Source of the DNA: an uncultured Streptococcus sp.
Lineage (GTDB): Bacteria; Bacillota; Bacilli; Lactobacillales; Aerococcaceae
NCBI GenBank assembly: GCA_963551375.1
Contig: CAUVGI010000001.1
Coordinates: 5,902 to 69,901, forward strand
DNA length: 64,000 nucleotides
Reading direction: 5' to 3'
Positions within the stretch are counted from its first letter, which is position 1. Every line of letters starts with the position of its first letter. Positions 3,388 to 61,224 of the stretch are shown here, in pieces. Both the position numbers and the translations under genes were made by a program. The notes under the pieces are model-generated. The model did not search any database and was not told where the DNA came from. It saw only the letters and a program-made list of their open reading frames with translations.

Positions 3388-4659
3388 CTATTCTTCTTTG
3401 GGCTTACGGTTCTTCCACCAATGTCGAACTTCGGCAATAAAATACAATGACCCCGTCACCCATAATTCGCTCTTGTCGTCTGTTGAGCTGGCAAAACGGT
3501 CAATGACGTCTTCAAAGCTTTCTTCATAGGAAATCTTGCGAGAATCCAAGTACGCTTCGACATCACTTCTAGCAATCGACTGTCCCTTTGAAGGATGGAA
3601 ACTCGTTAAGATGATGTTCACGTCAGGAAGAGCTTCCTGCAATTTTGCAAGCATCTGTTGACTATCTTTTCGAGTGAGCGCGCTAAATAACAGCATCTGT
3701 TTCTTGCCAACACGAGCCGTCATGTTTTGAACGAGTCGCTCGATGGCCGGCAAATTATGAGCACCGTCGATGATCACAAGCGGGGTTTCTTGCAACACTT
3801 CCATGCGTCCTGGCCAGGAAACAACTCGTAGGGCCGCCTCGATGAATTCGGGTTGCACACTTCTACCCGTAGCTTCCATCCAAGAGCGAAATGCTCGAAT
3901 CGCTACGGTCGCATTCTCTTTTTGGAAGGCTCCTTTAAGGGCTAATTGTTCTAGCGAAATCGTTAACTCGGTATCTTGGTACGAATCTTCTACTAGTGAG
4001 AAATCCTCCCCAAACGCCTGCACCGTTGCACCTTGTTTACTAGCGGTACTATGTATCACATCCATACATTCACGCGTAACTGGCCCGACAACCACTTGCT
4101 GCCCAGCCTTAATAATCCCTGCTTTTTGCGCCGTAATTTCTTCCAACGTGCTTCCGAGTAAGTCTTGATGGTCTAAGCCAATCGTCGTAATTACACTGAC
4201 GAGTGGATGGCCGACATTCGTATTATCCAACAGACCACCAATCCCCACTTCAATAATCGCAAGGTCGACGGCTTCCCGCTGAAAGACGACAAACATCATC
4301 GCTGTTAAAATCTCGAAATAGTTAAAGGCTCCCCACTCTTCGAATAAGCACCTCTCCACCTCTCTTACCACCGATGCGGCTTGCCAGAACGGCTCCTCCC
4401 CTAGGGGCACTCCGTCTAGCTGGATTCGTTCTCTAATACTGTCCATATGTGGTGAAGTGAATGTCCCTACTCGCAATCCATGCGCCTTCGCAAAGGCCGT
4501 GATCATCGCAGCAGTGGACCCTTTCCCATTCGTCCCAGCAATATGAATACTCTTCAATTCACGTTCTGGATTTCCAAGTGCTTCTAGGATAGCCTCCATG
4601 CGGTACAATCCATGTTTACGCGGAATACTCTCGCTCTTTTTTAACCACTCTTGAATCAT
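3388..4659 (-). CDS. folC: Folylpolyglutamate synthase / dihydrofolate synthase
   Basis: 423 aa, Mur-ligase fold, P-loop GTNGKGST. It lies downstream of valS, as is common in Bacilli. Confidence 0.9.
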   Translation of the reverse strand: MIQEWLKKSESIPRKHGLYRMEAILEALGNPERELKSIHIAGTNGKGSTAAMITAFAKAHGLRVGTFTSPHMDSIRERIQLDGVPLGEEPFWQAASVVREVERCLFEEWGAFNYFEILTAMMFVVFQREAVDLAIIEVGIGGLLDNTNVGHPLVSVITTIGLDHQDLLGSTLEEITAQKAGIIKAGQQVVVGPVTRECMDVIHSTASKQGATVQAFGEDFSLVEDSYQDTELTISLEQLALKGAFQKENATVAIRAFRSWMEATGRSVQPEFIEAALRVVSWPGRMEVLQETPLVIIDGAHNLPAIERLVQNMTARVGKKQMLLFSALTRKDSQQMLAKLQEALPDVNIILTSFHPSKGQSIARSDVEAYLDSRKISYEESFEDVIDRFASSTDDKSELWVTGSLYFIAEVRHWWKNRKPKEE

Positions 4660-4766: not shown

Positions 4767-7409
4767 TTAGATTTTCTTCAATGTTGCGATACGTTCTAAC
4801 ACTGCTTCACGTTGTGCTTGATAGTCCGCACCTTTTGCACGTTCAGCTTCAACAACCGCTGCAGGAGCTTTCGCCACAAATTTCTCGTTCGATAATTTCT
4901 TCTCGACACGATCCACTTCTTGTTGCAATTTCTCTGCTTCTTTTTCAAGACGAGCGATTTCGTCTTTGATGTTGATTAACCCTGCTAATGGTAAGTAAAT
5001 TTCAGCACCTGTGATAACAGAAGTTACCGCATCAGATGGTGCTTCAACGTCTTCACCATACACGAATTCTTCTGGATTTGAGAAGCGTGCAATATAAGAT
5101 TCGTTTTCTTTCAAGATCGCGTAGTGCGCTGCGTCGCTCACTTTCGCAATGATGTTAATTGGTTTTGATAATGGTGTGTTCATTTCGTTACGAACCGTAC
5201 GTACTGAACGGATGAAGTCCATTAAGAATTCCATTTCTTCGGCTGCTTTTTCGTCCATTTGTTCTGGGTGAACGGTTGGATAAGTTGCTACCACTAATGA
5301 TTCCCCAACGTGAGGAACTGATTGCCAGATTTCTTCTGTCACGAAAGGCATGATTGGGTGTAATAGACGTAATGTGTTGTCTAATACATATACAAGAATG
5401 CTACGTGTTGTTAATTTCGCAGCTTCGTCGTCCCCTGCTAATGTTTCTTTCGACATTTCGATATACCAGTCACAGAAATCATCCCAGATGAAGCGATATA
5501 GGAGACGTCCTGCTTCACCGAATTCGAATTTCTCGAAGAGTTCTGTCACTTTGCCAATCGTTTGATTCAAGCGTGTTAAAATCCATTTATCCGCAAGAGT
5601 CTTCTCACCAGTGATATCCACTTGGTCCGCTGTTAAGTCGCCCACGTTCATTAATGCGTAACGGCTTGCGTTCCAAATCTTGTTGATGAAGTTCCATGCA
5701 GCATCCATCTTGTCTGTTGAGTAACGAACGTCTTGCCCTGGAGCAGAACCGTTTGCTAAGAACCAACGAAGCGCATCGGCACCATATTGCTCGATGACTT
5801 CCATTGGGTCAACCCCGTTTCCAAGAGACTTACTCATCTTACGTCCTTGGCTATCACGAATTAATCCGTGGATAAGAACGTTCTTGAATGGACGTTTACC
5901 TGTAAATTCTAACCCTTGGAACATCATACGGCTTACCCAGAAAGTAAGGATGTCGTACCCTGTTACAAGTGTGTTTGTTGGATAGTAACGTTTGTAATCA
6001 GCTGAATCTTCATCTGGCCAACCCATTGTTGAAAATGGCCATAATGCAGATGAGAACCAAGTATCTAATACGTCTGGATCTTGTGTCCAGTTTTCGCTGT
6101 CGCTTGGAGCTTCCATACCTACATAGACTTCGCCTGTTTCTTTATGATACCAAGCTGGAATTTGATGTCCCCACCATAATTGACGTGAAATTACCCAGTC
6201 GTGAATGTTTTCCATCCAACGTAAGTACGCATCATTGAAACGTGGTGGATAGAAGTTTACTGTGTTGTCCCCTTCTGCACGTTGCGCATTGATGGCTTGC
6301 TCTGCCAAAGGTCCCATTTTCACGAACCATTGTTTTGAAAGACGTGGTTCAACAACGACATCTGTACGTTCTGAGTGACCAACGCTGTGTAAATGTTTTT
6401 CGATTTTCACAAGAAGGCCAGCTTCTTCTAAATCTTTCACGATAGCTTTACGCGCCGCAAAACGGTCCATGCCTTCGTATTTACCGGCTAACTCGTTCAT
6501 CGTCGCATCATCGTTCATCGCGTTAATACGTGGTAAGTTATGACGGTTCCCTACTTCAAAGTCGTTCGGGTCATGCGCTGGAGTGATTTTTACAACCCCT
6601 GTTCCGAAATCTTGCTCCACGTATTCGTCAGCGATGATTGGAATTTCACGGTTCACTAACGGCAAGATAACTGTTTTCCCGATAAGCGCTTGATAACGTT
6701 CGTCGTCTGGGTGAACCGCAACTGCTGTATCTCCAAGAAGTGTTTCTGGACGAGTCGTTGCGATTTCTAGGAATCCACTTCCGTCTGCTAGAGGGTAGTT
6801 CATATGATAGAACGCGCCTTCTACGTCTTTATGAATTACTTCGATATCAGATAATGAAGTCTTCGCTTTAGGGTCCCAGTTGATGATGTACTCACCACGA
6901 TAGATTAAGCCTTTTTCGTATAATGTAACGAAGACTTTCTTCACGGCGTCAGATAACCCTTTATCTAATGTGAAACGTTCTCTGCGGTAGTCTACAGAAA
7001 TCCCCATTTTTGCCCATTGTTCACGGATATGGCTGGCATATTCTTCCTTCCATTCCCATGTTTGTTCAAGGAACTTCTCACGGCCAAGGTCATAACGAGA
7101 TAAGCCTTCACCGCGTAATTTTTCTTCTACTTTTGCTTGTGTTGCAATCCCCGCATGGTCCATCCCTGGTAACCATAAAGTGTCGAACCCTTGCATGCGT
7201 TTTTGACGGATAATCATATCTTGTAACGTTACGTCCCAAGCATGTCCTAAGTGTAATTTCCCTGTTACGTTTGGTGGCGGGATAACGATTGAATAAGGTT
7301 CAGCATTTGGATCTTCGTTTGGATGGAAGACGCCTGAATCAACCCACCATTGATATTTACCAGCTTCAACTTCTTGTGGTTGAAACTTAGATGACATTTC
7401 TTTAGCCAT
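4767..7409 (-). CDS. valS: Valyl-tRNA synthetase
   Basis: HIGH-type motif ([12 protein letters not shown]), KMSKS motif and a C-terminal coiled coil. I moved the start to ATG 7409 behind AAGGAGG. The longer ORF-track start would overlap the T-box terminator. Confidence 0.97.
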
Positions 7410-7440
7410 TGATTTTCCTCCTTGTATCTTGTTTGTGTCC

Positions 7441-7695
7441 AATAAAAAAATCCTATGAAGACACTCTCCATAGGACGATTGATTTCGTGGTACCACCTAA
7501 TATTCGCGTAATTATTTATTACGCCTCGATGTTGGTAACGAAGTGTCGTCTCCGTACTCTATTACTTCTTTTCGTAGAGTAAGCTCACAAGCTACCTTCA
7601 AATGAATCTGCTAGGAAGTTGCACCAAGTCTTCCCTCTCTCGTAAACAAAGTCATTTTACTCCTCTTGTTCATCGCTCTAATATACAAAATATTC
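7441..7695 (-). promoter_or_regulatory. T-box leader (tRNA-sensing antiterminator) of valS
   Basis: On the minus strand: AGAGA, a GGTGCAA distal loop, and the T-box sequence GGTGGTACCACG (7486-7497). A terminator (TCCTATG..CATAGGA plus U7) sits at 7444-7475. The candidate specifier GUA is at 7593-7595. Promoter TTGCAA-17-TAGAAT is at 7702-7730. Confidence 0.85.
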
Positions 7696-13592: not shown

Positions 13593-13844
13593 ATTTTCCT
13601 CCTTGGATACTTCGGTGAGAAGCACACGAGGGATTTCCCTTCATAACAAAAGTCTGGAGCTTTTCGTAAGAGCACCAGACTTCTACAATCGTTTAAATTT
13701 CAAACTATCTATTATAAATGTGTGTACATTTCTCAACTCAACGAATACTATAGCATGCATCCAGCGAGAATGCAAAGAATACAGACCGCCGACTCCTGCT
13801 TTTTATACTTTGAAAATCCTTTTATGACAAGTTTTTGACTGAGT

Positions 13845-14034
13845 GCTGATTCCTTAAAATCCTTGCGGATTTTTTATAATGGCTGTAATGGGGCAACGGC
13901 TTGAGCCATGGTCTCAAGCTCTTTCAAGATTCAAACGTACTCTAGAAAATAAATTTTCAAGAGTACGTAATTCACTTTGAATGCTATCCCCCATTACTGC
14001 CATTATAAAATCCGCTAGATTCTTCGGAATCAGC
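13845..14034 (+). repeat. Hairpin repeat copy B (subfamily I)
   Basis: Outer arms GCTGATTCC/GGAATCAGC. P1 is ATAATGGCTGTAATGGGG paired with CCCCATTACTGCCATTAT. The core is near-identical to copy F. Confidence 0.95.
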
Positions 14035-14154
14035 GCCAATTAACTTGGAATAGCAGTTTCAAAATAAAAATCGGGAGGAGGCGGGTGGGTTTGCTTCTCG
14101 TGGTGCGGTTGAGAAATGGGACACTTTATAATAGCTAGTTCTCAGGGAGGGGAC

Positions 14155-20200: not shown

Positions 20201-20393
20201 AGTTCAAAACGAAGAACCCCAAGGAGTCCATAGTATTAGCAATGAGACTTAGCATTCAAAGTGAATTATGGACTCTTAAAATTTTATTTTTTAGAGTCCA
20301 TTTGAATCTTGAAAGAGCTTGAGACTTTGGCTCAAGCCGGTGCCTCATTGCATATACTATAGAGATATCCTCGAGGGTTCGAAGTTTTGAACT
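20201..20393 (-). repeat. Hairpin repeat copy C (subfamily I, inverted orientation)
   Basis: The reverse complement carries CACCGGCTTGAGCCAAAGTCTCAAG, then CAAA, TGGACTCT..AGAGTCCA and TAATTC. A7 (20193-20199) and T7 (20397-20403) flank the hairpin. Confidence 0.93.
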
Positions 20394-22873: not shown

Positions 22874-23521
22874 TTATTTTTGGTTATCTAAGAAATAAAT
22901 AAGTGTTTGAAGTTCGTTTGTTAAGTCCACGTTTTGAACTCGAACGTCTTCTGGTACGTCTAAGCGGATTGGTGTGAAGTTCAAGATTCCGCGAACATTT
23001 GCTTCTACTAAGCGGTCTGCTGTTTCTTGAGCTACATCTTGAGGCACTGTTAAGATGGCCACTTGGATTTGTTGAACTTTCAATTGTTCTACCATTTCAT
23101 CCATGCTGTAAACTGGCACACCTGTTTGGATTGTTCCAACGATGTCTTCGTTTACGTCGAACGCTGCGCTAATACGCACGTTGTTGCTTTGGTGGAAGTT
23201 GTAGTTTAAGAGCGCTTGTCCTAATTTACCAACCCCTACTAAAGCGACGTTTGTTAGGCGATCTTGGTTTAAAGTATGGCTGAAGAATTCTAATAAGTAT
23301 TCTACATCATATCCATATCCACGTTTTCCTAAAGCTCCAAAGTATGAGAAGTCACGGCGGATTGTTGCGCTATCGACTTTTACGGCTTCACTTAATTCAG
23401 TTGATGAGATGCGACGTTTTCCTGCATCATGCAAGAAACGTAAGTAACGATGATAAATGGCCAAACGTTTTGCTGTTGCGCGTGGCACTTCGATTTCTTT
23501 TAATTCGTTTAAATCTTTCAT
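22874..23521 (-). CDS. rex: Redox-sensing transcriptional repressor Rex
   Basis: N-terminal winged helix ([13 protein letters not shown], ..[11 protein letters not shown]) plus the Rossmann motif GVGKLG. Confidence 0.92.
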
Positions 23522-23763
23522 GAATAAGACTCCCTTTTTCTTTTATTTCCATGCGTATTCTATCACAACGACATTTCATTTCACAAACAGTTTGCTTACA
23601 CCTCACGAACATTAGTGAATTTCGCTTATATGCAGCAAGCTTTGTGCTTTTTTCTTCACAACCTCCCTATTGTGAATGTGAATGCAAAGAAGAACGCGTA
23701 TCAATATTGTTCCCCTTCTTTTTTATGCTAAAATAAACTGAAACCATATTGAAAGGACCCGTC

Positions 23764-25713
23764 ATGATTTTACTACAAGGACAAGGACTCGCGCGTACGT
23801 TTGCGGATGAAGTCCTATTTGAAAATATTACAATTCATATTCAAGAAAATTCACGCATTGCCATCGTTGGGCGAAATGGTACTGGAAAATCTACGTTATT
23901 AAAAATGTTGGCTGGAATCGAAGAACCTTCTCTTGGCGCTGTGTCAAAGAAGAAAGACCTCTCGATTGGCTACTTAGATCAATACGCTGCCATCCAGTCT
24001 TCCCGTACCGTTTGGGAAGAAATGGTGCATCTCTTCGAAGATGTGGAAACTTTGAAGAAACAAGCGCAAAAAGCAGCTGAACAACTTGGCGACCCAGACC
24101 TTCTAAGTGACCCCGTGGCGTACGAACTCGCCTTAAGACGATACGATCAATTGCAAGAAGAATTGAACCAAAAGAATGCGTATGGTTACGAGTCTGAAAT
24201 TCGTACCGTTCTTCATGGATTCCGTTTCTATCCAGAAGACTACGACCAACCGATTCAAGCACTCTCTGGAGGCCAACGCACTCGTCTCGCTCTTGCTCGT
24301 ATTTTATTAGAAAAACACGACCTACTCATCTTAGACGAACCGACCAACCACTTGGATATCGAGACATTAACATGGCTTGAAGACTATTTACGCTCTTCAA
24401 GTAGCGCTTTAGTCATCGTATCCCACGACCAATACTTCTTGGACCGTGTGTGTAACGAAGTCTATGAAATCAGTCATAAGGCCTGCGAATATTACAAAGG
24501 AAACTACTCGCACTACTTAGAAGAACGCGAGCAACGCTATTTACTCAAACAAAAAGCCTACGAGAAGCAGCAACAAGAGATTCACGACTTAGAAGAATTC
24601 ATTGCGAAAAACTTAGTGCGCGCCTCAACCACAAAACGCGCGCAATCACGTCGTAAGAAACTTGAGAAGATGGAACGCTTAGAGAAACCAAAAGGCGATC
24701 AGCGCTCTGCTCGTTTTGAATTCACGGTGGAACGCGAATCCGGAAACCAAGTCTTGCAAGTAACGGATGCTTATATCGGCTACAACCACGAAGCCTTGAG
24801 CGGGCCGATTTCCTTCCAGCTTCGCAAGCGTGAAGCCATCGCGATTGTGGGGCCTAACGGTATTGGAAAATCTACCCTCTTGAAGTCGATTACGGGTGAA
24901 TTACCCTTAATCGAAGGTTCAATCGACTTAGGTGCTGGCGTTCAAGTCGGTTACTATGACCAAAACTTGGCCGGCCTCTCATCGAATCAAACGGTTCTAG
25001 AAGAACTTTGGTCTCGTCACTCAACGATGCCTGAAAAAGACATCCGTTCGATTCTTGGCAGTTTCCTTTTTTCAGGCAACGACGTGGAGAAAACAACCGC
25101 TCAACTCAGCGGGGGTGAAAAGGCTCGTTTGGCACTTTGCAAATTGTCTCTTGAACATGATAATTTCCTATTGCTCGACGAACCAACCAACCACTTGGAC
25201 ATCGACAGTAAAGAAGTCCTCGAAGATGCCCTCATCGACTACGACGGCACGATTTGTTTCGTTTCGCATGACCGTTTCTTCATCAACAAGGTCGCAACGG
25301 CCATTCTTGAAATCGAAGAAACTGGCAGCACGCTGTATTTAGGCGACTACGACTACTATCTCGAGAAAAAACAAGAGAAAGAAGAACTCGCCGCTTTGCA
25401 AGAGGCCAAGGATGCCCCACTAGCGACGGCCCAGCCGATGACAGAAGCTAAAGCCAGCTACCATGCCTCTAAAGAAGAGCAACGTCAAATCCGTACGCTC
25501 ACAAGACGTATCGAGCAACTAGAAACGGAGATGCACGATATCGAAACGGCACTCGAACAAGTGCATGAGGCGATGATGCTGGAAGAAAACTATTCTGACC
25601 CAGATAAAGCCGCTGCCCTCTCAACAGAAGAAGGAGCTCTTCTCGAGCGCCAAGAAACACTTCTTGCAGAATGGGAAGAAGCGTCTCTAGCGCTAGAAGA
25701 ATTCAATTCATAA
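23764..25713 (+). CDS. ABC-F family ATPase (two NBDs, no TMD, C-terminal coiled coil; Uup/YfmR-like)
   Basis: Two Walker A motifs (GRNGTGKST, GPNGIGKST), two LSGG signatures, an inter-domain linker and an acidic coiled-coil tail. Start at ATG 23764. Confidence 0.9.
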   Translation: MILLQGQGLARTFADEVLFENITIHIQENSRIAIVGRNGTGKSTLLKMLAGIEEPSLGAVSKKKDLSIGYLDQYAAIQSSRTVWEEMVHLFEDVETLKKQAQKAAEQLGDPDLLSDPVAYELALRRYDQLQEELNQKNAYGYESEIRTVLHGFRFYPEDYDQPIQALSGGQRTRLALARILLEKHDLLILDEPTNHLDIETLTWLEDYLRSSSSALVIVSHDQYFLDRVCNEVYEISHKACEYYKGNYSHYLEEREQRYLLKQKAYEKQQQEIHDLEEFIAKNLVRASTTKRAQSRRKKLEKMERLEKPKGDQRSARFEFTVERESGNQVLQVTDAYIGYNHEALSGPISFQLRKREAIAIVGPNGIGKSTLLKSITGELPLIEGSIDLGAGVQVGYYDQNLAGLSSNQTVLEELWSRHSTMPEKDIRSILGSFLFSGNDVEKTTAQLSGGEKARLALCKLSLEHDNFLLLDEPTNHLDIDSKEVLEDALIDYDGTICFVSHDRFFINKVATAILEIEETGSTLYLGDYDYYLEKKQEKEELAALQEAKDAPLATAQPMTEAKASYHASKEEQRQIRTLTRRIEQLETEMHDIETALEQVHEAMMLEENYSDPDKAAALSTEEGALLERQETLLAEWEEASLALEEFNS

Positions 25714-25757
25714 TCGTTTGAAATTATCATATATGATAATTTTGCACTTTCAGCAAT

Positions 25758-25802
25758 TCAAAGAAGCGTAGACTCTTTTTATAGAGTCTACGCTTCTTTT
25801 TA
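25758..25802. terminator. Bidirectional terminator between the ABC-F gene and the ABC exporter operon
   Basis: 16-bp stem AAGAAGCGTAGACTCT/AGAGTCTACGCTTCTT, with an A-rich stretch 5' and a T-run 3'. Confidence 0.85.
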
Positions 25803-25804
25803 GT

Positions 25805-27550
25805 TTACTGTTGCCACTGACTTTGATAGAGATTGTAGTAAAATCCACGTTGCTCCATCAAGCTGGCATGATTTCCTTTTTCAATGACATGTCCGTCTTT
25901 TAAGACGAGAATCACATCCGCGGTACGAATGGTCGACAAGCGGTGCGCCACGATAAAGCTCGTGCGTCCTTCCATCAGATGTTGGAAGGCTTCTTGAATC
26001 TTCAACTCGGTACGCGTATCGATGGAAGACGTTGCCTCATCGAGAATCAGCATATTAGGTTGTCCCATCATCACACGCGCGATGCAGAGCAATTGTTTTT
26101 GCCCTTGCGAGAAGTCCCCACCGTCATCCGAAATCACCGTATCATACCCTTGTGGCAGACGGCTCACGAATCCATGGATATGACAGAGTTTGGCGATGCG
26201 AATCATCTCTTCTTCGCTAATCGTTGGGTTCCCCATCGTGATATTTTCACGGACCGTCCCCGTTTGAAGCCATGTTTCTTGAAGCACCATTCCAAATCCA
26301 TTTCGCAGTGAATGACGCGTGATGTCTTCAATCGAATGTCCATCGATGGCTAATTTTCCACTATTAATATCGTAGAAACGCATCAATAAGTTAATCAATG
26401 TCGTCTTTCCGCTTCCGGTTGGACCGACAATCGCCACGCGTTGCCCTGGTTTTACATCCAACGAGAAGTCTTCAATCAACGGTTGGTCTTTCACGTAAGA
26501 GAAGTTCACATGGCTAAATTCCACCGCTCCATCGAAACTTTCAGGAGACACAGTATCCTCACGCTCTGGATGTTCAGAAGGTTGTTCCAACAGTTCAAAT
26601 ACGCGGTTAGCACAGGCAATCGCATTTTGCAATTCGGTAATAACGCCTGAGATTTCATTGAATGGTTTCGTATATTGGTTGGCATAACTTAAGAAGGCCG
26701 ATAGTTGTCCAACCGTCACGCCACCGTTAATCACGAAGAACGCCCCGAACACGCCCACACTGGTGTAGACAATACTATTAACAAAACGCGTTGCCGGATT
26801 CGTGATGCTCGAGAAGAAAATAGCCTTAAGCGATACATCCGTTAAGTTCTTATTAATCACCGAGAAGTCCTCGATGACTTTTTCTTGTTGCTGGAAGGCC
26901 GTAACCACTCGTGTCCCCTCAATCATCTCATTCATATAGGCAGTTTGGTCACCACGAATTTCCGATTGTTGTTTAAAGAAATGATAGGATTTCTTCGCAA
27001 CAAAGCTGGCCATCACAAAGGATACTGGCGTCACCACCACTACCACGAAGGTCAGTGTCACATTTACGCTAAGCATAAAGATTAACGTTCCTAGAATCGT
27101 CATCACACCGGTAAATAACTGCGTGAATCCCATCAACAGCCCGTCCGCGAATTGATCCGCGTCTGCAATAATACGGCTCTCGATTTCTCCGGCTGGATGA
27201 ATATCTAAATAACTGAGCGGTAATGTCTCGATTTTTTCAAGCGCATCTCTACGAAGGTCACGCACAACCGAGTACGTCATCTTGTTATTGCTGAGGTTCA
27301 TAAACCACTGCGCGATGGCTGCCATTGCCGTAAAGAGTGCAATCTGCCAAAGGATGGCAAATAGTCCTTCATAGAACACTTGGCCGGTATCTAACATTTG
27401 GTCTACGGCTTCCCCGACTAATTTTGGAATCATTAACGTTCCGAATACATTCACACTCGCCAAAAGAATAGACGCTACAAAGTAGATGCGGTAGCGACGG
27501 ATGTAGCGGAGGACTTTACGGATGGTTTCCCATTGAGTTGTCTGTCTCAT
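25805..27550 (-). CDS. ABC exporter permease/ATPase subunit with consensus Walker B (heterodimer partner)
   Basis: 581 aa, TMD plus NBD. Motifs: GPTGSGKTT, LILDEATSSID, and a deviant signature FSQGQKQ. Confidence 0.9.
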   Translation of the reverse strand: MRQTTQWETIRKVLRYIRRYRIYFVASILLASVNVFGTLMIPKLVGEAVDQMLDTGQVFYEGLFAILWQIALFTAMAAIAQWFMNLSNNKMTYSVVRDLRRDALEKIETLPLSYLDIHPAGEIESRIIADADQFADGLLMGFTQLFTGVMTILGTLIFMLSVNVTLTFVVVVVTPVSFVMASFVAKKSYHFFKQQSEIRGDQTAYMNEMIEGTRVVTAFQQQEKVIEDFSVINKNLTDVSLKAIFFSSITNPATRFVNSIVYTSVGVFGAFFVINGGVTVGQLSAFLSYANQYTKPFNEISGVITELQNAIACANRVFELLEQPSEHPEREDTVSPESFDGAVEFSHVNFSYVKDQPLIEDFSLDVKPGQRVAIVGPTGSGKTTLINLLMRFYDINSGKLAIDGHSIEDITRHSLRNGFGMVLQETWLQTGTVRENITMGNPTISEEEMIRIAKLCHIHGFVSRLPQGYDTVISDDGGDFSQGQKQLLCIARVMMGQPNMLILDEATSSIDTRTELKIQEAFQHLMEGRTSFIVAHRLSTIRTADVILVLKDGHVIEKGNHASLMEQRGFYYNLYQSQWQQ

Positions 27551-29277
27551 GCTTCATCCTCCTTTGGAAATTGTGAATAGTAAATTTCTTGGTAAATCTC
27601 ATTGTTGGCTAAGAGCTCTTCATGCGTGCCTTTGCCGACAAGATTTCCTTCGTCTAACACGAGAATTAAGTCTGCATACTGCACAGAAGCTGCCCGTTGC
27701 GACACAATAAAGGTCGTTGGACGTGGCGTTTGGTTCTTAATAGCCTCACGCAATTTTGCATCGGTCGCAAAGTCTAACGCCGAAGCACTATCATCTAAAA
27801 TTAAAATTGGTGCTTGTTTGGCAATCGCACGTGCAATCGTCATCCGTTGTTTTTGCCCACCGGATAAGTTGCGACCATTTTGTTCGATACCATAATCCAG
27901 TCCGCCTTCTTTTGTTTGTACAAACTCGCTAGCTTGAGCGACATCGAGCGCATGTTCTACGACTTCAGTAGAAGCCGATGCATTTCCAAAACGGACATTG
28001 TCGGCAATCGTTCCACGGAAGAGTTGCGCCTTTTGTAAGACCATTGCGACCGCTCCACGAATCGATGCAAAACGGTAGTCACGAACGTCATTGCCGAATA
28101 CTTCAACTTCCCCTTGGGTCGCATCATAGAACCGAGGAATCATATTCACAAGAGACGATTTCCCGCTACCAGTCCCACCGATAACGCCGATGGTTTGGCC
28201 TTTCAATGCGGTAAATGAAATATGGTTCAGCGCTGCGTTTTGGTCTCCTTGATATGTCAATGTCACGTCTTTGAACGCCACTGCCACTTCACCTTCTGGA
28301 TGAACCTCTTTCGTTCCTTCAACCATATCCGGCTCAATCGATAGAATATTGTCGATACGTTCCGCACTCGCTACGGATTTTGTCATCGTTACGACAAGGT
28401 TCGCGAACTTCACAAGCTCCACTAGAATTTGTGACATATAGTTTGTCAAAGCGATAACGTCCCCTTTTGACAAAGTCCCAGTATCCACTTTAATCGCACC
28501 ACCATAAAGAATGACGATGAGTGCCACATTCACAATCACAAACGTAATAGGATTCATGGCTCCAGAGAGGCCACTCACCTTTTGTTGCGCTTGATTCAAT
28601 GTTTCAGTATCTTCTCTAAAGGTATGAATTTCTTTTTCTTCACGGTTAAATGCACGAATCACACGCACACCGAGCAAGTTTTCATGCACGAGACGCATAA
28701 TGCGATCTAATTTCCCTTGCACACGTCGATACATTGGAATCGTCCAGTAAATAATTCCGAATACGACGATAGCTAAAATCGGCACCGTAATGACAAACGT
28801 CCATGCCATTTCTACATTCACGACAAATGCCATCACAATCGCTCCTCCGACGATAAACGGTGAACGGAGCAATAGACGAAGCGCGATATTTAACCCACTT
28901 TGCACGAGATTGATATCACTCGTCAAACGCGTGAGTAAAGTGTCATTTCCGAGCGCATCGAGTTGCGAAAAGCTAAAGTATTGAATTTTTGAAAAGAGCG
29001 CCTGTCTTACATCAGCGGTAAATCCAGTCGCCGCCTTTGCCGCAAAATACTGAGCGGTAACCGACACGACAACGCCTAAAATTCCTAGACAAATTAGGAT
29101 GACCCCTTGATGAAGAATCAAGGTCGTGTCTTTATTTCCAATCCCTTTGTCGATGATGACCGCCATAATGAGCGGAACAAATAACTCCAGTATCGCTTCG
29201 AATAATTTGAATAATGGTGCCAATATCGTTTCTTTCAGATACGGCTTTAAATAAGGTTTTAATTGGTTCACAATCAT
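27547..29277 (-). CDS. ABC exporter permease/ATPase subunit with degenerate catalytic site
   Basis: 576 aa. Motifs: GGTGSGKSS, LSGGQKQR, and Walker B ILILDDSASALD (Asp replaces the catalytic Glu). It overlaps the downstream gene by 4 nt. Confidence 0.9.
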   Translation of the reverse strand: MIVNQLKPYLKPYLKETILAPLFKLFEAILELFVPLIMAVIIDKGIGNKDTTLILHQGVILICLGILGVVVSVTAQYFAAKAATGFTADVRQALFSKIQYFSFSQLDALGNDTLLTRLTSDINLVQSGLNIALRLLLRSPFIVGGAIVMAFVVNVEMAWTFVITVPILAIVVFGIIYWTIPMYRRVQGKLDRIMRLVHENLLGVRVIRAFNREEKEIHTFREDTETLNQAQQKVSGLSGAMNPITFVIVNVALIVILYGGAIKVDTGTLSKGDVIALTNYMSQILVELVKFANLVVTMTKSVASAERIDNILSIEPDMVEGTKEVHPEGEVAVAFKDVTLTYQGDQNAALNHISFTALKGQTIGVIGGTGSGKSSLVNMIPRFYDATQGEVEVFGNDVRDYRFASIRGAVAMVLQKAQLFRGTIADNVRFGNASASTEVVEHALDVAQASEFVQTKEGGLDYGIEQNGRNLSGGQKQRMTIARAIAKQAPILILDDSASALDFATDAKLREAIKNQTPRPTTFIVSQRAASVQYADLILVLDEGNLVGKGTHEELLANNEIYQEIYYSQFPKEDEA

Positions 29278-29367
29278 ACTTCCTTTTACATCAATAGTAC
29301 TTTTATTTTATCACAATTTGCGTTCTACAAAAGCAGAAACCCTTGATTCCTACTGTTATTATACAGG

Positions 29368-29403
29368 GTGTAACAATTATGTTACGTAACAAAAATGTTA
29401 CAC
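29368..29403. promoter_or_regulatory. Tandem palindromic operator pair 1 (GTAACA-N4-TGTTAC, twice)
   Basis: GTAACAATTATGTTAC (29370-29385) abuts GTAACAAAAATGTTAC (29386-29401). The pair lies immediately upstream of the TATAAT (29358-29363, minus strand) of the exporter operon. Confidence 0.7.
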
Positions 29404-29424
29404 TCACTTTTAATTTCCTAAAGA

Positions 29425-29458
29425 TGTATCATTAATGATACGTATCATAAATGATACA
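29425..29458. promoter_or_regulatory. Tandem palindromic operator pair 2 (GTATCA-N4-TGATAC, twice)
   Basis: GTATCATTAATGATAC (29426-29441) abuts GTATCATAAATGATAC (29442-29457). The architecture matches pair 1, with one half-site base changed. Confidence 0.7.
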
Positions 29459-29506
29459 AAACTATTTTTTCCCACAGTTGGGTTTAGCGGAGTAAATAAT
29501 CCTTAG

Positions 29507-29761
29507 AAGACTGGGCAACTCTTTGTTATTAGAACGTTGATTACGAAAAATCTTACGGATTCTATAATAGCTATAACGTGGGATGGCATTAAAAACGAAA
29601 AAGGGAGCGTAGGAATTTTATTCCGTACGCTCCCTTTGAGGCTTTAAAGGTGAGAGACCTAGGCTCGAACCGGTGCAACGTTATAGCTATTATGAAGATA
29701 TCCGTAAGGATTTGGAGTAATCAACATTATTCACTATACTGTCACCCAGATGCCCAGTCTT
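29507..29761 (-). repeat. Hairpin repeat copy D (subfamily II, inverted orientation)
   Basis: Outer arms AAGACTGGGCA/TGCCCAGTCTT and GTTGATTAC/GTAATCAAC. P1 is a perfect 16-bp pairing of ATAATAGCTATAACGT with its complement. The core carries GGTTCGAGCCTAGGTCTCTCACC and GGGAGCGTACGGAA..TTCCTACGCTCCC. Confidence 0.93.
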
Positions 29762-29769
29762 ATATTTAA

Positions 29770-30762
29770 TTATTTACGTAATCCGTGTTCTTCGATGTAC
29801 TCCGCAATTTGGATGGCGTTGCTCGCTGCACCCTTACGAATATTGTCGCCCACACACCAGATATGGAAGCTGTTTGGTTGAGAGATGTCGCGGCGAATAC
29901 GTCCCACATACACTTCATCATGTCCAGTTGCTTGTAATGGTGTTGGATATACATTTTCCTCAGGTTTGTCTAATACGATTACTCCTGGTGCTTTTTCTAA
30001 AATCGCACGAATTTCTTCAGGTGTTGTATCTTTTTCGAAAGTCACATTGATTTCTACAGAGTGTGAGTTGAATACAGGCACACGCACACAAGTAGCAGTG
30101 ATGGCTACATCATCTGACAATCCTAGAATCTTGCGAGTTTCTTGAATCATTTTCATTTCTTCTTTTGTATAGCCGTTTTCTAAAAATACGTCGATATGTG
30201 GCAATACATTATTGTAAATTGGGTGTGGGTAGTTTGTTGGAGCTTCCCCTTTTTCCCCGTTTCTTAAATCGTTAATCCCTGCTTGTCCAGAACCTGAAAC
30301 AGCTTGGTAAGTTGTATACGCCACACGTTTTAATCCAAATGCATCATGCAATGAACGTAATGGCACAACAGATTGGATAGTTGAGCAGTTTGGATTTGCG
30401 ATAATCTTACGTTCTAATGTTGGTGCGTTACATTCTGGCACGACTAAATCAATCTCTGGATCCATTCTCCATGCGCTTGAGTTGTCGATGACAATCACGC
30501 CGTCACGTTCTGCGATTGGTGCAAATTTCAATGAAGTGCCGCCCCCTGCTGAGAAGATGGCGTAATCAATATCACGCTTGAAGGAGTCTTCCGTTAATTC
30601 TTCGACTACATAATCTTTTCCTCTAAACTGTAGTACTTTCCCTGCTGAACGCGCTGATGCAAGTAGATATAAGTGATCCACTTGTAAGTTGCTTTCTTCT
30701 AACCGTTCAATCATTTTTGTTCCAACGACACCTGTCGCTCCTACAATTGCAATATTTACCAT
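29770..30762 (-). CDS. asd: Aspartate-semialdehyde dehydrogenase
   Basis: 330 aa. VGATGVVG Rossmann motif and active-site NPNCSTI. Confidence 0.95.
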   Translation of the reverse strand: MVNIAIVGATGVVGTKMIERLEESNLQVDHLYLLASARSAGKVLQFRGKDYVVEELTEDSFKRDIDYAIFSAGGGTSLKFAPIAERDGVIVIDNSSAWRMDPEIDLVVPECNAPTLERKIIANPNCSTIQSVVPLRSLHDAFGLKRVAYTTYQAVSGSGQAGINDLRNGEKGEAPTNYPHPIYNNVLPHIDVFLENGYTKEEMKMIQETRKILGLSDDVAITATCVRVPVFNSHSVEINVTFEKDTTPEEIRAILEKAPGVIVLDKPEENVYPTPLQATGHDEVYVGRIRRDISQPNSFHIWCVGDNIRKGAASNAIQIAEYIEEHGLRK

Positions 30763-30800: not shown

Positions 30801-31445
30801 TTATAGCGAATCTCTCGTTGAAAGTAAAGAATTGTCTTTCTTCGCGACACATTTGTAGCTGGTATAGATACACTCTTTCACGAGTGCGTCATCTGAGCAT
30901 ACATTCAGCGCGATTGAAATCCAATGCTTCTTATTCATATGATAGGCTTCATAAATTCCGTCATGTGCAATGAGTTGTTCCTTGTCCTCCGGATGAATCT
31001 TCACGTTCAAAATCAAGGCATCGGCCTTTGAAGCCACTCCTAGTTTTTGAAGCGGCACTTGCATCATGAGACCATACCATTTCCCTTTTTCTTCGACCAT
31101 AAAGCCCAGCGCCTCCGTCTTCTCAAACGGATTGCCACAGTATGGGACAATATTTTCGATTATCCACTTTGACCATTTTTGGCGCGTTTCTTCGATATCT
31201 GATTGTTCGGGATGCATCCACTGAAACACTAGCTCCTCTGCCTCTTCGCGCAAGGCTTGAGCGATACTACTACTCGTTGTCGGTATATCGAATAAGGTAT
31301 AGCGCTCGTTAACGTCATCGAGCGCTACGATTTCTAAGCCTTGTTTCTTGCTGGCACTCACCACCTGAAAGGAAAATCCATCCATTTGGCTTGGAAAGAT
31401 TTTTCCTTCCAGTTCTGGTAAGTCCGTTTTTAGTGTCCATTTCAT
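30801..31445 (-). CDS. Two-domain protein with a C-terminal MmcQ/YjbR-like domain
   Basis: C-terminal AYHMNKKHWISIALN...IYTSYKCV matches the YjbR pattern (NKxHWxSV...SY). I do not recognise the N-terminal ~100 aa. Confidence 0.65.
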   Translation of the reverse strand: MKWTLKTDLPELEGKIFPSQMDGFSFQVVSASKKQGLEIVALDDVNERYTLFDIPTTSSSIAQALREEAEELVFQWMHPEQSDIEETRQKWSKWIIENIVPYCGNPFEKTEALGFMVEEKGKWYGLMMQVPLQKLGVASKADALILNVKIHPEDKEQLIAHDGIYEAYHMNKKHWISIALNVCSDDALVKECIYTSYKCVAKKDNSLLSTRDSL

Positions 31446-33939: not shown

Positions 33940-34209
33940 GGGTAAAATCCTTACGGATTTCTTCAAGGTAGAGTGTTATATCGGATAAACTGAAAAGAAT
34001 CAGTTTTGATATTGAAAGAGTTATAGCGGGGCAACGGCTCGAGCCTAGGTCTCTCGCCTTTAAAGCCTCAAAGCAGGAGTACGGAAGGACTTCCTACTCC
34101 TGCTAATTCGCATTTAATGCACTTCCCCGCTATTCTTTCAATAAACTGATTCTTTTTTTGTTTATCCTCTATTTAAATTTCACCCGTAGAATCCGTAAGA
34201 ATTTTACCC
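33940..34209 (+). repeat. Hairpin repeat copy E (subfamily II, long arms)
   Basis: Arms run from GGGTAAAATCCTTACGGATT... on one side to ...AATCCGTAAGAATTTTACCC on the other. P1 is ATAGCGGGG/CCCCGCTAT. The core carries GGCTCGAGCCTAGGTCTCTCGCC, CAAA, GCAGGAGTACGGAA..TTCCTACTCCTGC and TAATTC. Confidence 0.93.
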
Positions 34210-34677: not shown

Positions 34678-34953
34678 CTATTTAATAAATTTGTAAACAC
34701 TGCTTCTATGCGCAAATTCAAAGGCTATAATTTTTAATTGGTCATCTTCGATTTCTACAATTAATCTATAATTTCCAACTCTATATCTCCAATATTTTGA
34801 TAAAGTTCCACTCAGAGGTTTCCCCTTACTTCTTGGATCTTCACAGTCTATCAAATTTTTTTCAATCCATTTTTTTAAGATTACTTTTGTTCCATTATCT
34901 AATTTTTTAATTTTCTTTTTGAGACGTTCATCATAAAAAAGTGTGTACCTCAT
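34678..34953 (-). CDS. relE: RelE/ParE-family type II toxin
   Basis: 91 aa. KKLD...LKK and ..GKPLSG.LSKYWRYRVGNYRLIVEIEDD.L.I..F.HR fit the RelE/StbE pattern. TAATG overlap with the upstream antitoxin gene. Confidence 0.85.
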   Translation of the reverse strand: MRYTLFYDERLKKKIKKLDNGTKVILKKWIEKNLIDCEDPRSKGKPLSGTLSKYWRYRVGNYRLIVEIEDDQLKIIAFEFAHRSSVYKFIK

Positions 34954-35171
34954 TATAAGTCTCCCCAGAATTCCTCATGGTCAACTAATATAACTTCTCC
35001 ATTTGCTTTAGCACTTTCGTACTCTTTTACAGCTTGTAAATCATATTCTTCTTCAATTTTTTCAGTTAATGCTTTCTTTAATAGGGTCGTTAACCCTTCT
35101 CCGGTAAAGTCTGCATAATTTTTAAAAAGGCGCTCTTCTTCTTTATTTAAACGTAATGAAATTGTACTCAT
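34953..35171 (-). CDS. relB: RelB/DinJ-like (RHH) antitoxin
   Basis: 72 aa. N-terminal ISLRLNKEEERLFKNYA is ribbon-helix-helix-like and the C-terminus is acidic. It is translationally coupled to relE. Confidence 0.75.
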   Translation of the reverse strand: MSTISLRLNKEEERLFKNYADFTGEGLTTLLKKALTEKIEEEYDLQAVKEYESAKANGEVILVDHEEFWGDL

Positions 35172-41674: not shown

Positions 41675-41863
41675 GACGATGCATCGAATCCTTGCGGATT
41701 TGTTTATAATAGCTGTAATGGGGCAACGGCTTGAGCCATGGTCTCAAGCTCTTTCAAGATTCAAACGTACTCTAGAAAATAAATTTTCAAGAGTACGTAA
41801 TTCACTTTGAATGCTATCCCCCATTACTGCTATTATAAAATCCGCTCGATTCTTCTCATCGTC
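41675..41863 (+). repeat. Hairpin repeat copy F (subfamily I; near-identical to B)
   Basis: Outer arms GACGATG/CATCGTC. Positions 41689-41858 align with 13860-14028, with only about five differences by my hand alignment. Confidence 0.95.
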
Positions 41864-61032: not shown

Positions 61033-61224
61033 AAGATGATTCCTCTTCGACTATCGGATATCTTCATAATCACTGTAACGTTGCACCGGTTCGAGCCGTA
61101 CCGTCTCTCACCTTTAAAGCCTCAAAGGAGGTGTACGGAATGAATTCCTACACCTCCTAATTCGTTTTAATGCGTATCACGTTACTGTGATTATAGAATC
61201 CGTTAGTCTTTGCGGAATCATCTT
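61033..61224 (+). repeat. Hairpin repeat copy G (subfamily II)
   Basis: Outer arms AAGATGATTCC/GGAATCATCTT. P1 is ATAATCACTGTAACGT paired with ACGTTACTGTGATTAT. The core carries GGTTCGAGCCGTACCGTCTCTCACC, CAAA, GGAGGTGTACGGAA..TTCCTACACCTCC and TAATTC. Confidence 0.93.

Follow-up and report, generated by a model that had tools for sequence, protein, structure and literature searches.

In heteroimmune phages the recognition helix and the operator change together, in discrete specificity classes, and the KorB operators (OB sites) of plasmid RK2 exist as about a dozen palindromic copies, some at promoters and others far away. The REP/BIME elements of enterobacteria and the dRS3/NIME elements of Neisseria are short, clustered extragenic palindromes with variable linkers, a preference for 3' ends and convergent junctions, and concerted evolution. 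The controller (C) proteins of restriction-modification (R-M) systems are XRE-like dimers that bind cooperatively to two adjacent palindromes upstream of their own gene (PMC3351150, PMC3488213), and in Neisseria the acidic DNA-mimic protein DMP19 is encoded with an XRE-type factor, NHTF (PMC3384305). Here we describe four 16-bp palindromes upstream of the genes for a heterodimeric ATP-binding cassette (ABC) exporter in a 64-kb stretch of contig CAUVGI010000001.1 (the window). The palindromes are conserved in Granulicatella, recur at dispersed loci and fall into sequence classes that co-vary with the recognition helix of an XRE-type protein, and we consider it probable that they are operators of this trans-encoded, polymorphic repressor, to whose control the exporter may then be subject.

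The four palindromes form two abutting pairs between asd (29770-30762, minus strand) and the exporter genes. The promoter-proximal pair joins GTAACA-ATTA-TGTTAC (GTAACAATTATGTTAC, 29370-29385) to GTAACA-AAAA-TGTTAC (GTAACAAAAATGTTAC, 29386-29401), both of the type that we call class 1. After 24 nt on the plus strand, the double GTAACAATTATGTTAC|GTAACAAAAATGTTAC (29370-29401) is followed by GTATCATTAATGATAC|GTATCATAAATGATAC (29426-29457), made up of GTATCA-TTAA-TGATAC (29426-29441) and GTATCA-TAAA-TGATAC (29442-29457), which have the GTATCA half-site and A/T spacer of class 2. A direct read and exact pattern matching recovered all four as perfect palindromes, in agreement with a preceding sequence-only reading of this DNA, which had also proposed that each pair makes up a larger palindrome; the pairs do extend into palindromes of 34 nt each (29369-29402 and 29425-29458). 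Exact matches to GTAWCA-N4-TGWTAC number four in the window, all of them in this array. The looser core TAWCA-N4-TGWTA has five matches against 0.30 expected, a count reached by none of 100 shuffles, and the fifth match is a related palindrome (25725-25738).

Alignment of 24 exporter upstream regions shows the palindromes to be the best-conserved blocks of the region, and they are kept in about 23 Granulicatella species-level genomes, so that the conservation in orthologous promoters for which the sequence-only reading had suggested looking is present. The proximal pair is nearly invariant across these promoters, and orthologue conservation extends to GTAACAATTATGTTAC and GTATCATAAATGATAC individually. 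The distal GTATCA element comprises one or two palindromes according to species; its spacers differ in L021, and L019 and L023 have it only in degenerate form (L numbers are our handles for retrieved sequences).

The motif is not confined to the exporter. A metagenome scan for two abutting GTANCA-N4-TGNTAC units returned at least 120 loci; the locus counts given here and below rest on the matches listed. Only about a dozen of the 109 low-GC loci are the exporter promoter, and the remainder collapse into about nine further loci with Granulicatella flanking proteins, which gives about ten array loci in all, tens to hundreds of kb apart on large contigs, and almost no singletons. Six of the ten or so lie in convergent 3'/3' gaps, and none in a divergent one. 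The convergent loci are those between a 321-aa membrane protein and cysK, between a second heterodimeric ABC exporter and yidC, between pheT and a DUF1307 lipoprotein, between rpmE and DUF368, between gldA and comFC, and between a 90-aa coiled-coil protein and formylglutamate amidohydrolase (the FGase locus); the cysK and second-exporter loci carry triple arrays, each of which holds one double of every operator class. Two loci are co-directional, one past the yceD terminator and 63 nt before the gene for a 117-aa membrane protein, the other the XRE operon described below, and L171, a single locus, is a further array member. The arrays usually stand 10-40 nt past a rho-independent terminator, and no promoter is expected at those in convergent gaps. 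The 32-mer at 29370-29401 is also present at the cysK, second-exporter/yidC and rpmE/DUF368 loci, and identical 32-mers, N4 spacers included, recur at unrelated array loci. Between species, whole doubles switch from GTAACA to GTATCA or the reverse at orthologous positions (XRE operon and FGase locus). The search for further sites that had been proposed from the sequence thus finds the motif at about nine other loci, and the earlier view of an array private to the exporter is not borne out.

Convergent junctions make up 1 of the 48 in the window, and this one, at the 3' end of the exporter operon, carries the related single palindrome AAATTATCA-TATA-TGATAATTT (AAATTATCATATATGATAATTT, 25721-25742). 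The same palindrome adjoins arrays at two other loci, and at the rpmE locus it switches between TTATCA and TTAACA from species to species. It forms part of a 75-nt unit (25690-25765) that consists of the last codons and stop of an ABC-F gene plus the palindrome AATTATCATATATGATAATT. As a variable-number tandem repeat, the unit has one copy in the window, three in several species and five in L205 (L004, L007, L012, L021 and L205 were compared).

Among the dispersed loci, one supplies a candidate regulator. In every locus examined, a double palindrome precedes by 25 nt the first start codon of an operon whose first gene encodes an acidic 90-aa protein, ORF1 (for open reading frame 1), and whose second encodes a 96-98-aa XRE protein. 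The latter matches Pfam HTH_3 (E = 2e-10), with precomputed HTH_3/HTH_31 matches as well, and its profile matches in the PDB are a PbsX-family regulator, the 434 repressor, HipB, R-M controller proteins and NHTF. A regulator with such a site in its own promoter, which the sequence-only reading had advised searching for, is thus found; its family is XRE, in place of the TetR, MarR, PadR or GntR type that had been expected. The last half-site of the array and its flank at this operon, TGATACAAT or TGTTACACT, form an extended -10 element, so that protein bound there would lie over the promoter of the operon. The own operators of class-1 XRE genes are GTAACATTTTTGTTAC|GTAACAAAAATGTTAC, in which GTAACAAAAATGTTAC is identical to 29386-29401 of the window. 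The operon is flanked by an ABC-2 transporter or transketolase gene upstream and by DUF218 and rumA downstream, with no prophage genes. ORF1 and the XRE protein are confined to Granulicatella (206 ORF1 and 75 XRE clusters, identity at least about 66%). ORF1 has an isoelectric point of 4.2, with 22 acidic and 9 basic residues; it has no Pfam or NCBIfam family and no sequence relative in the PDB, and its structural model (predicted local distance difference test, pLDDT, 57) is too weak for a fold search. Some of the XRE proteins carry the Joint Genome Institute name 'xre family toxin-antitoxin system, antitoxin component'. In L182 and L265 ORF1 and/or the XRE gene is frameshifted; these contigs come from the assemblies BNJV and BNJS, which may share the homopolymer errors of the BNJU contig L313, so that the splits may reflect assembly errors as well as pseudogenization.

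The operon's own operators and XRE proteins fall into three matched classes. Proteins with F(K/N)RTALARLERG(E/K)GTP stand behind GTAACA-W4-TGTTAC (class 1; 8 loci: L260, L274, L182, L262, L195, L267, L311 and L313). Those with (F/I)ERTNLSRLESGKKNP, or the variant written ..RTNLSRLESGKKNP, have GTATCA-W4-TGATAC (class 2; about 11 loci: L232, L200, L221, L198, L242, L285-287, L314, L315 and the hybrid L312, which has one A/T-spacer GTATCA palindrome and a degenerate second one). Those with IERTNLSRLEKGKINP, or the variant written ..RTNLSRLEKGKINP, have GTATCA-TGTA/TGCA/CGCA-TGATAC (class 3; 20 loci, L290-L309, retrieved through two distinct XRE proteins, P0362 and P0393). The pairing of helix variant and operator class has no exception in any locus, including L290-L315, which were fetched by protein identity and not by DNA pattern and thus provide a test without ascertainment bias. 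The three XRE variants differ in the segment after ..YAKKVG, in and just past the recognition helix, and in an AlphaFold model (pLDDT 67) helix 58-66 coincides with the variable RT(A/N)L(A/S)RLE segment.

An alignment of 17 sequences, with 291 variable columns, separates class 1 from classes 2 and 3 by 23 fixed differences: 4 are half-site bases, 18 fall in the approximately 60 nt that code for the recognition helix and 1 lies upstream, in the N-terminal coding region of the XRE gene, while the intervening 340 nt or so that code for ORF1 contain none. Between class 3 and classes 1 and 2, the operator spacers hold 5 fixed differences and the part coding for the helix-turn-helix holds 18. Neither the upstream and flanking context nor the C-terminal tail (KPFGY or KPQNF) follows the class, which indicates that the coupling of helix and operator survives recombination on both sides and between them. 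The suggestion in the sequence-only reading of one or two related regulators is only partly upheld: the half-site types match related specificities, but these correspond to allelic variants of one XRE gene at a single locus.

These observations bear on the exporter through its promoters. A consensus scan places a sigma-70-like promoter, P1, on the minus strand at 29358-29385 (10 of 12 consensus positions matched), with a -35 element GTAACA (29385-29380) that falls inside the palindrome 29370-29385, a 16-nt spacer and a -10 element TATAAT (29363-29358). The TATAAT is restricted to the window, L003, L006, L019 and L023; most other related genomes have (G)AAAAAT, and a promoter scan of L008 found no P1-like promoter. 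A second candidate, P2, is the extended -10 element TGnTAAAAT, which occupies minus-strand positions 29305-29313 and precedes the start codon by about 28 nt. It reads TGaTAAAAT in the window and TGaTACAAT in relatives, and the block TGTGATA(C/A)AAT is invariant among the 24 upstream regions. Relative to this element, the two pairs would span about -72 to -103 and -128 to -159. The good -10 element with pair 1 over its -35 region that had been read from the sequence is thus found by the scan, but it is a feature of particular strains, and the conserved extended -10 lies downstream of it.

The palindromes behave as predicted protein-binding operators should, being conserved, recurrent and matched in class to recognition helices; the operator idea of the sequence-only reading is right in kind and wrong in scope. 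From these patterns we infer physical binding, its stoichiometry and an effect on exporter transcription as follows. The array in the window would represent two tandem operator pairs from the Granulicatella-wide family, bound by an XRE protein encoded elsewhere. With half-site centers 10 bp apart, each 16-bp palindrome would accept one XRE dimer and each abutting pair two. In a strain with the class-1 protein, the class-1 double (29370-29401) would be occupied, occluding the -35 element of P1 and repressing the exporter; where the class-2 protein is present, occupancy would shift to the class-2 double (29426-29457). Both pairs are upstream of P2, on which their effect is uncertain, and control of the exporter would depend on the XRE allele of the strain and on the promoter used.

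Several points weigh against this interpretation. The six convergent array loci lie between 3' ends, with nothing obvious to control. There is apparently one XRE allele per genome, yet all three operator classes are kept everywhere, with the XRE and array loci on separate contigs. Operator and helix are about 450 bp apart, and linkage within haplotypes could account for part of their association. Control of the exporter is not universal, since one G. adiacens genome (20925_1_19) has a degenerate distal exporter site and a second has a class-2 XRE. XRE or ORF1 is frameshifted in some metagenome contigs, part of them error-prone assemblies. The pairs are, by their predicted spacing, too far upstream of the conserved extended -10 for simple occlusion, and binding and an effect on expression are predicted from sequence.

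The arrays might instead be REP-like dispersed palindromic repeats, intergenic and terminator-proximal, in which gene conversion or template switching inside the palindromes keeps them perfect; they would have no dedicated role at the exporter, and the XRE protein would use only the copy at its own promoter. This explanation, which we regard as possible though doubtful, accounts well for the identical 32-mers at unrelated loci, for the placement past terminators and for the excess of convergent loci, six of about ten against 1 of 48 junctions in the window. It also fits the variation of copy number between species, at the exporter and in the 75-nt unit, the switching of whole doubles between classes, with one half-site of each type in only 4 of 226 16-mers, and the folding of the doubles into stable DNA hairpins (z-scores -5 to -9). 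Against it, there are some ten stable loci in place of hundreds, with one array and one single palindrome in 64 kb. The arrays keep their orthologous positions from species to species, are better conserved there than the DNA on either side, and show no presence/absence polymorphism in the sequences compared. The spacers between doubles are unrelated in sequence and length, which argues that no larger mobile unit has been copied, and no transposase was seen beside the arrays at the array loci, except for an insertion sequence-like helix-turn-helix ORF near one array in L243. Three sequence classes that map one-to-one on XRE helices are unexpected for repeats that evolve independently of a protein.

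Three explanations that assign the exporter palindromes to other functions fare less well. The footprinted box of the Bacillus subtilis MarR/DUF24 regulator HypR, which lies at -53 to -95 of hypO, is GTATCAAAATTGATAC (PMC3351151), an exact instance of the motif, and the identical 16-mer occurs in Granulicatella arrays; pair 1 has a similar position with respect to the conserved extended -10. The palindromes might by this analogy form an upstream activator site for a regulator of the HxlR family. The match is nevertheless a single 16-mer from one paper, for which coincidence is not negligible, a tblastn search of the window and the retrieved loci with two HxlR-like queries gave no match, and the three classes and their co-variation with the XRE helix would be left without explanation; we regard a HypR-type regulator as improbable. 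Still less probable is the reading from which the analysis started, a private operator array for a dedicated drug-sensing regulator (TetR, MarR, PadR or GntR) displaced from the locus. The conservation of the palindromes upstream of the exporter and the overlap of pair 1 with a good promoter in this strain speak for it, but the same doubles at about nine other loci with unrelated neighbors contradict it, and no regulator stands beside the exporter in any Granulicatella genome compared, nor a consistent one beside its distant homologues. Finally, perfect stems with variable loops past terminators would suit hairpins that terminate or stabilize read-through transcripts from asd. Such an RNA-level element is very hard to credit, since the stems are of 6 bp, A/T-rich and without a U-tract, the arrays lie past terminators, often between two convergent ones, and are probably untranscribed, and an Rfam scan of the window, the region and nine array loci gave no match at the arrays.

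A variant of the operator interpretation, rather unlikely in our estimate, takes the arrays as chromosomal landmarks for a polymorphic repressor system and not as ordinary gene operators. The single XRE locus would have three specificity classes swapped between strains by recombination, and the ten or so fixed sites, mostly in untranscribed zones between convergent terminators, would hold operators for one, two or three classes. Such zones would be occupied whichever allele a strain holds, and the bound protein might serve as a roadblock or an insulator where genes converge or meet head-on, or the sites might titrate the repressor as a reservoir and so set how much of it is free. The persistence of all classes in every genome, together with the preference for convergent ends, goes beyond what the logic of an ordinary regulon explains, and the placement of the sites may have to do with insulation of transcription, titration of the repressor or turnover of its alleles in a genus that is naturally competent and recombines. 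On the reading that we prefer, with the palindromes as operators of the trans-encoded XRE repressor, there is now a specific candidate regulator for the orphan operator that precedes a multidrug-type exporter in an oral opportunist. Moreover, the three helix variants, which exchange A for N and A for S inside the helix and also differ in the loop that follows, go with one changed half-site base, A or T, and with a changed spacer, a residue-to-base map from natural variants of a kind rarely obtained from sequence alone.

The exporter genes themselves (27547-29277 and 25805-27550, minus strand) encode a heterodimeric type-I ABC exporter, with NCBIfam and PDB matches of the MsbA-like, TM287/288 and EfrCD type. 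Proteins named 'unclassified Granulicatella' share 98-100% identity with the exporter protein, which assigns the window to Granulicatella, an oral genus of the Carnobacteriaceae; the protein is 91-99% identical in 23 Granulicatella-like genomes in which synteny is kept with no inserted regulator. The earlier statement that no regulator gene lies nearby holds both for the window and for these 23 genomes. The DNA-binding proteins found in the window are only Rex (22874-23521), a DUF6290/ParE pair and a YjbR-domain protein, with no classical regulator near the exporter. The DUF6290 (ribbon-helix-helix-type, antitoxin-like) and ParE toxin genes (34678-35171, minus strand) lie between rpsT and holA. 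The YjbR-domain protein has 214 aa and carries its YjbR/MmcQ domain, whose family is annotated as DNA-binding, at the C-terminus; its gene lies between uvrB and asd (30801-31445, minus strand), 1.3 kb from the palindromes, and nothing ties it to them. A comparison of relatives for an adjacent regulator, as had been suggested, was informative on synteny, which shows no such gene in the Granulicatella genomes compared; clostridial homologues of about 50% identity have the unrelated neighbors Cytidylate_kin2, TetR, DtxR-like and LysR, with no consistent regulator among them. In L033, L034 and L039 (Butyrivibrio/Lachnospiraceae) the Cytidylate_kin2 (PF13189) gene lies just 5' of the exporter homologue (about 50% identity), co-directional and nearly abutting.

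A hairpin repeat resembling a miniature inverted-repeat transposable element (MITE) lies between asd and the palindromes (about 29500-29765). We rejected the idea that the palindromes are part of it because other copies in the window lack them, which indicates that repeat and palindromes are independent features. The repeat is about 200-260 bp long; its inverted arms are long, and the hairpin at its center resembles a terminator (GGGAGCGTA...TACGCTCCC with a T-run behind it, minus strand). Further copies are found at 61055-61220, 34016-34133, 13844-14035, 41687-41855 and 20280-20370, and copies also flank many array loci in other Granulicatella contigs. Elsewhere in the window, a T-box leader (7468-7682, minus strand) lies upstream of a 909-aa gene (4767-7496).

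The motif was also compared with other sites and sequences. The 16-mer GTATCAATATTGTTCC (23698-23713), one mismatch from the GTAWCA-N4-TGWTAC family pattern, may be a degenerate member or a chance occurrence; it sits in the gap from which rex and the ABC-F gene diverge, about 36 nt ahead of the ABC-F ORF start. A literature search for the motif written as N4 patterns gave no match. Viral contigs yielded 0 matches to the double pattern and, among the matches listed, chance matches only to the single-site pattern. NikR-type GTGTTAC/GTAACAC sites and a paper on the S. lugdunensis lugdunin regulator (LugR/LugJ) were set aside because spacing and orientation do not fit or the match lies in primer sequences only; the GlnR/TnrA, PadR, ArgR, Fur, LexA, parS, BceR and tetO motifs were dropped because each differs in spacing or orientation. 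A polar, Ter-like role as replication terminus or origin sites is unlikely, as the arrays are symmetric and GC skew is negative throughout the window. In high-GC soil and sediment contigs (L214, L216, L229, L234, L244, L254, L259 and L275), 2-7 abutting GTAGCA-N4-TGCTAC palindromes stand 10-30 nt upstream of a gene for a 520-540-aa ATPase_2 (PF01637)/STAND-like NTPase with the N-terminus (V/M)F(H/Q)TS.P.T..FFDR, a separate and apparently conserved association in high-GC bacteria. The plasmid- or conjugative-element-like sequence L231 (GC 0.50, with a VirB11-like ATPase) has one single and one double GTATCA-N4-TGATAC (3595-3707) between a 200-aa winged-helix gene and a 79-aa XRE-type helix-turn-helix gene, a second, unrelated case of the motif before an XRE gene.

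Comparison with the REP/BIME and dRS3/NIME families shows that the Granulicatella arrays share their extragenic location, clustering of short palindromes with variable linkers, preference for 3' ends and convergent junctions, and concerted evolution; unlike REP/BIME, with tens to hundreds of copies per genome, they occupy only about ten loci, consist of abutting perfect 16-bp palindromes, have no RAYT-type or other transposase seen at the arrays, and fall into classes tied to a recognition helix. The HypR box of B. subtilis has the same 16-mer and likewise lies upstream of its target promoter, but HypR belongs to another protein family and has two known sites, not dispersed tandem arrays. Closer in protein type are the R-M controller proteins, which are among the sequence matches of the Granulicatella XRE protein and also form specificity groups; no restriction or modification genes stand beside the XRE gene, whose neighbor rumA encodes an rRNA methyltransferase, and C-boxes are not dispersed through the genome as the arrays are. 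The operon resembles that of DMP19 and NHTF in combining acidic ORF1 with an XRE factor, and NHTF (PDB 3vk0) is among the XRE sequence matches; purely by analogy, ORF1 may be a DNA mimic, although, unlike DMP19, it is without similarity to any solved structure and has a low-confidence model.

A further parallel is with the immunity regions of phages and related elements (434 and lambda repressors; PBSX Xre). Like these, the Granulicatella system has a small HTH_3 protein, with a PbsX-family regulator and the 434 repressor as its closest solved relatives, and several similar palindromic operators, one of them over its own promoter; like heteroimmune phages, it has discrete classes in which helix and operator co-vary. 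Unlike phage immunity regions, it is chromosomal, with no prophage genes around, and its operators occupy about ten loci hundreds of kb apart, mostly off promoters, with all three classes in one genome. KorB offers a likeness for this dispersal, as one palindromic operator repeated at about a dozen places, but KorB is a plasmid protein of the ParB family, whereas the system described here is XRE-type, with chromosomal sites and three allelic specificities. What appears to be new, judged from these comparisons, is a putative XRE repressor-operator system that combines three co-varying specificity classes with operators dispersed over the chromosome.

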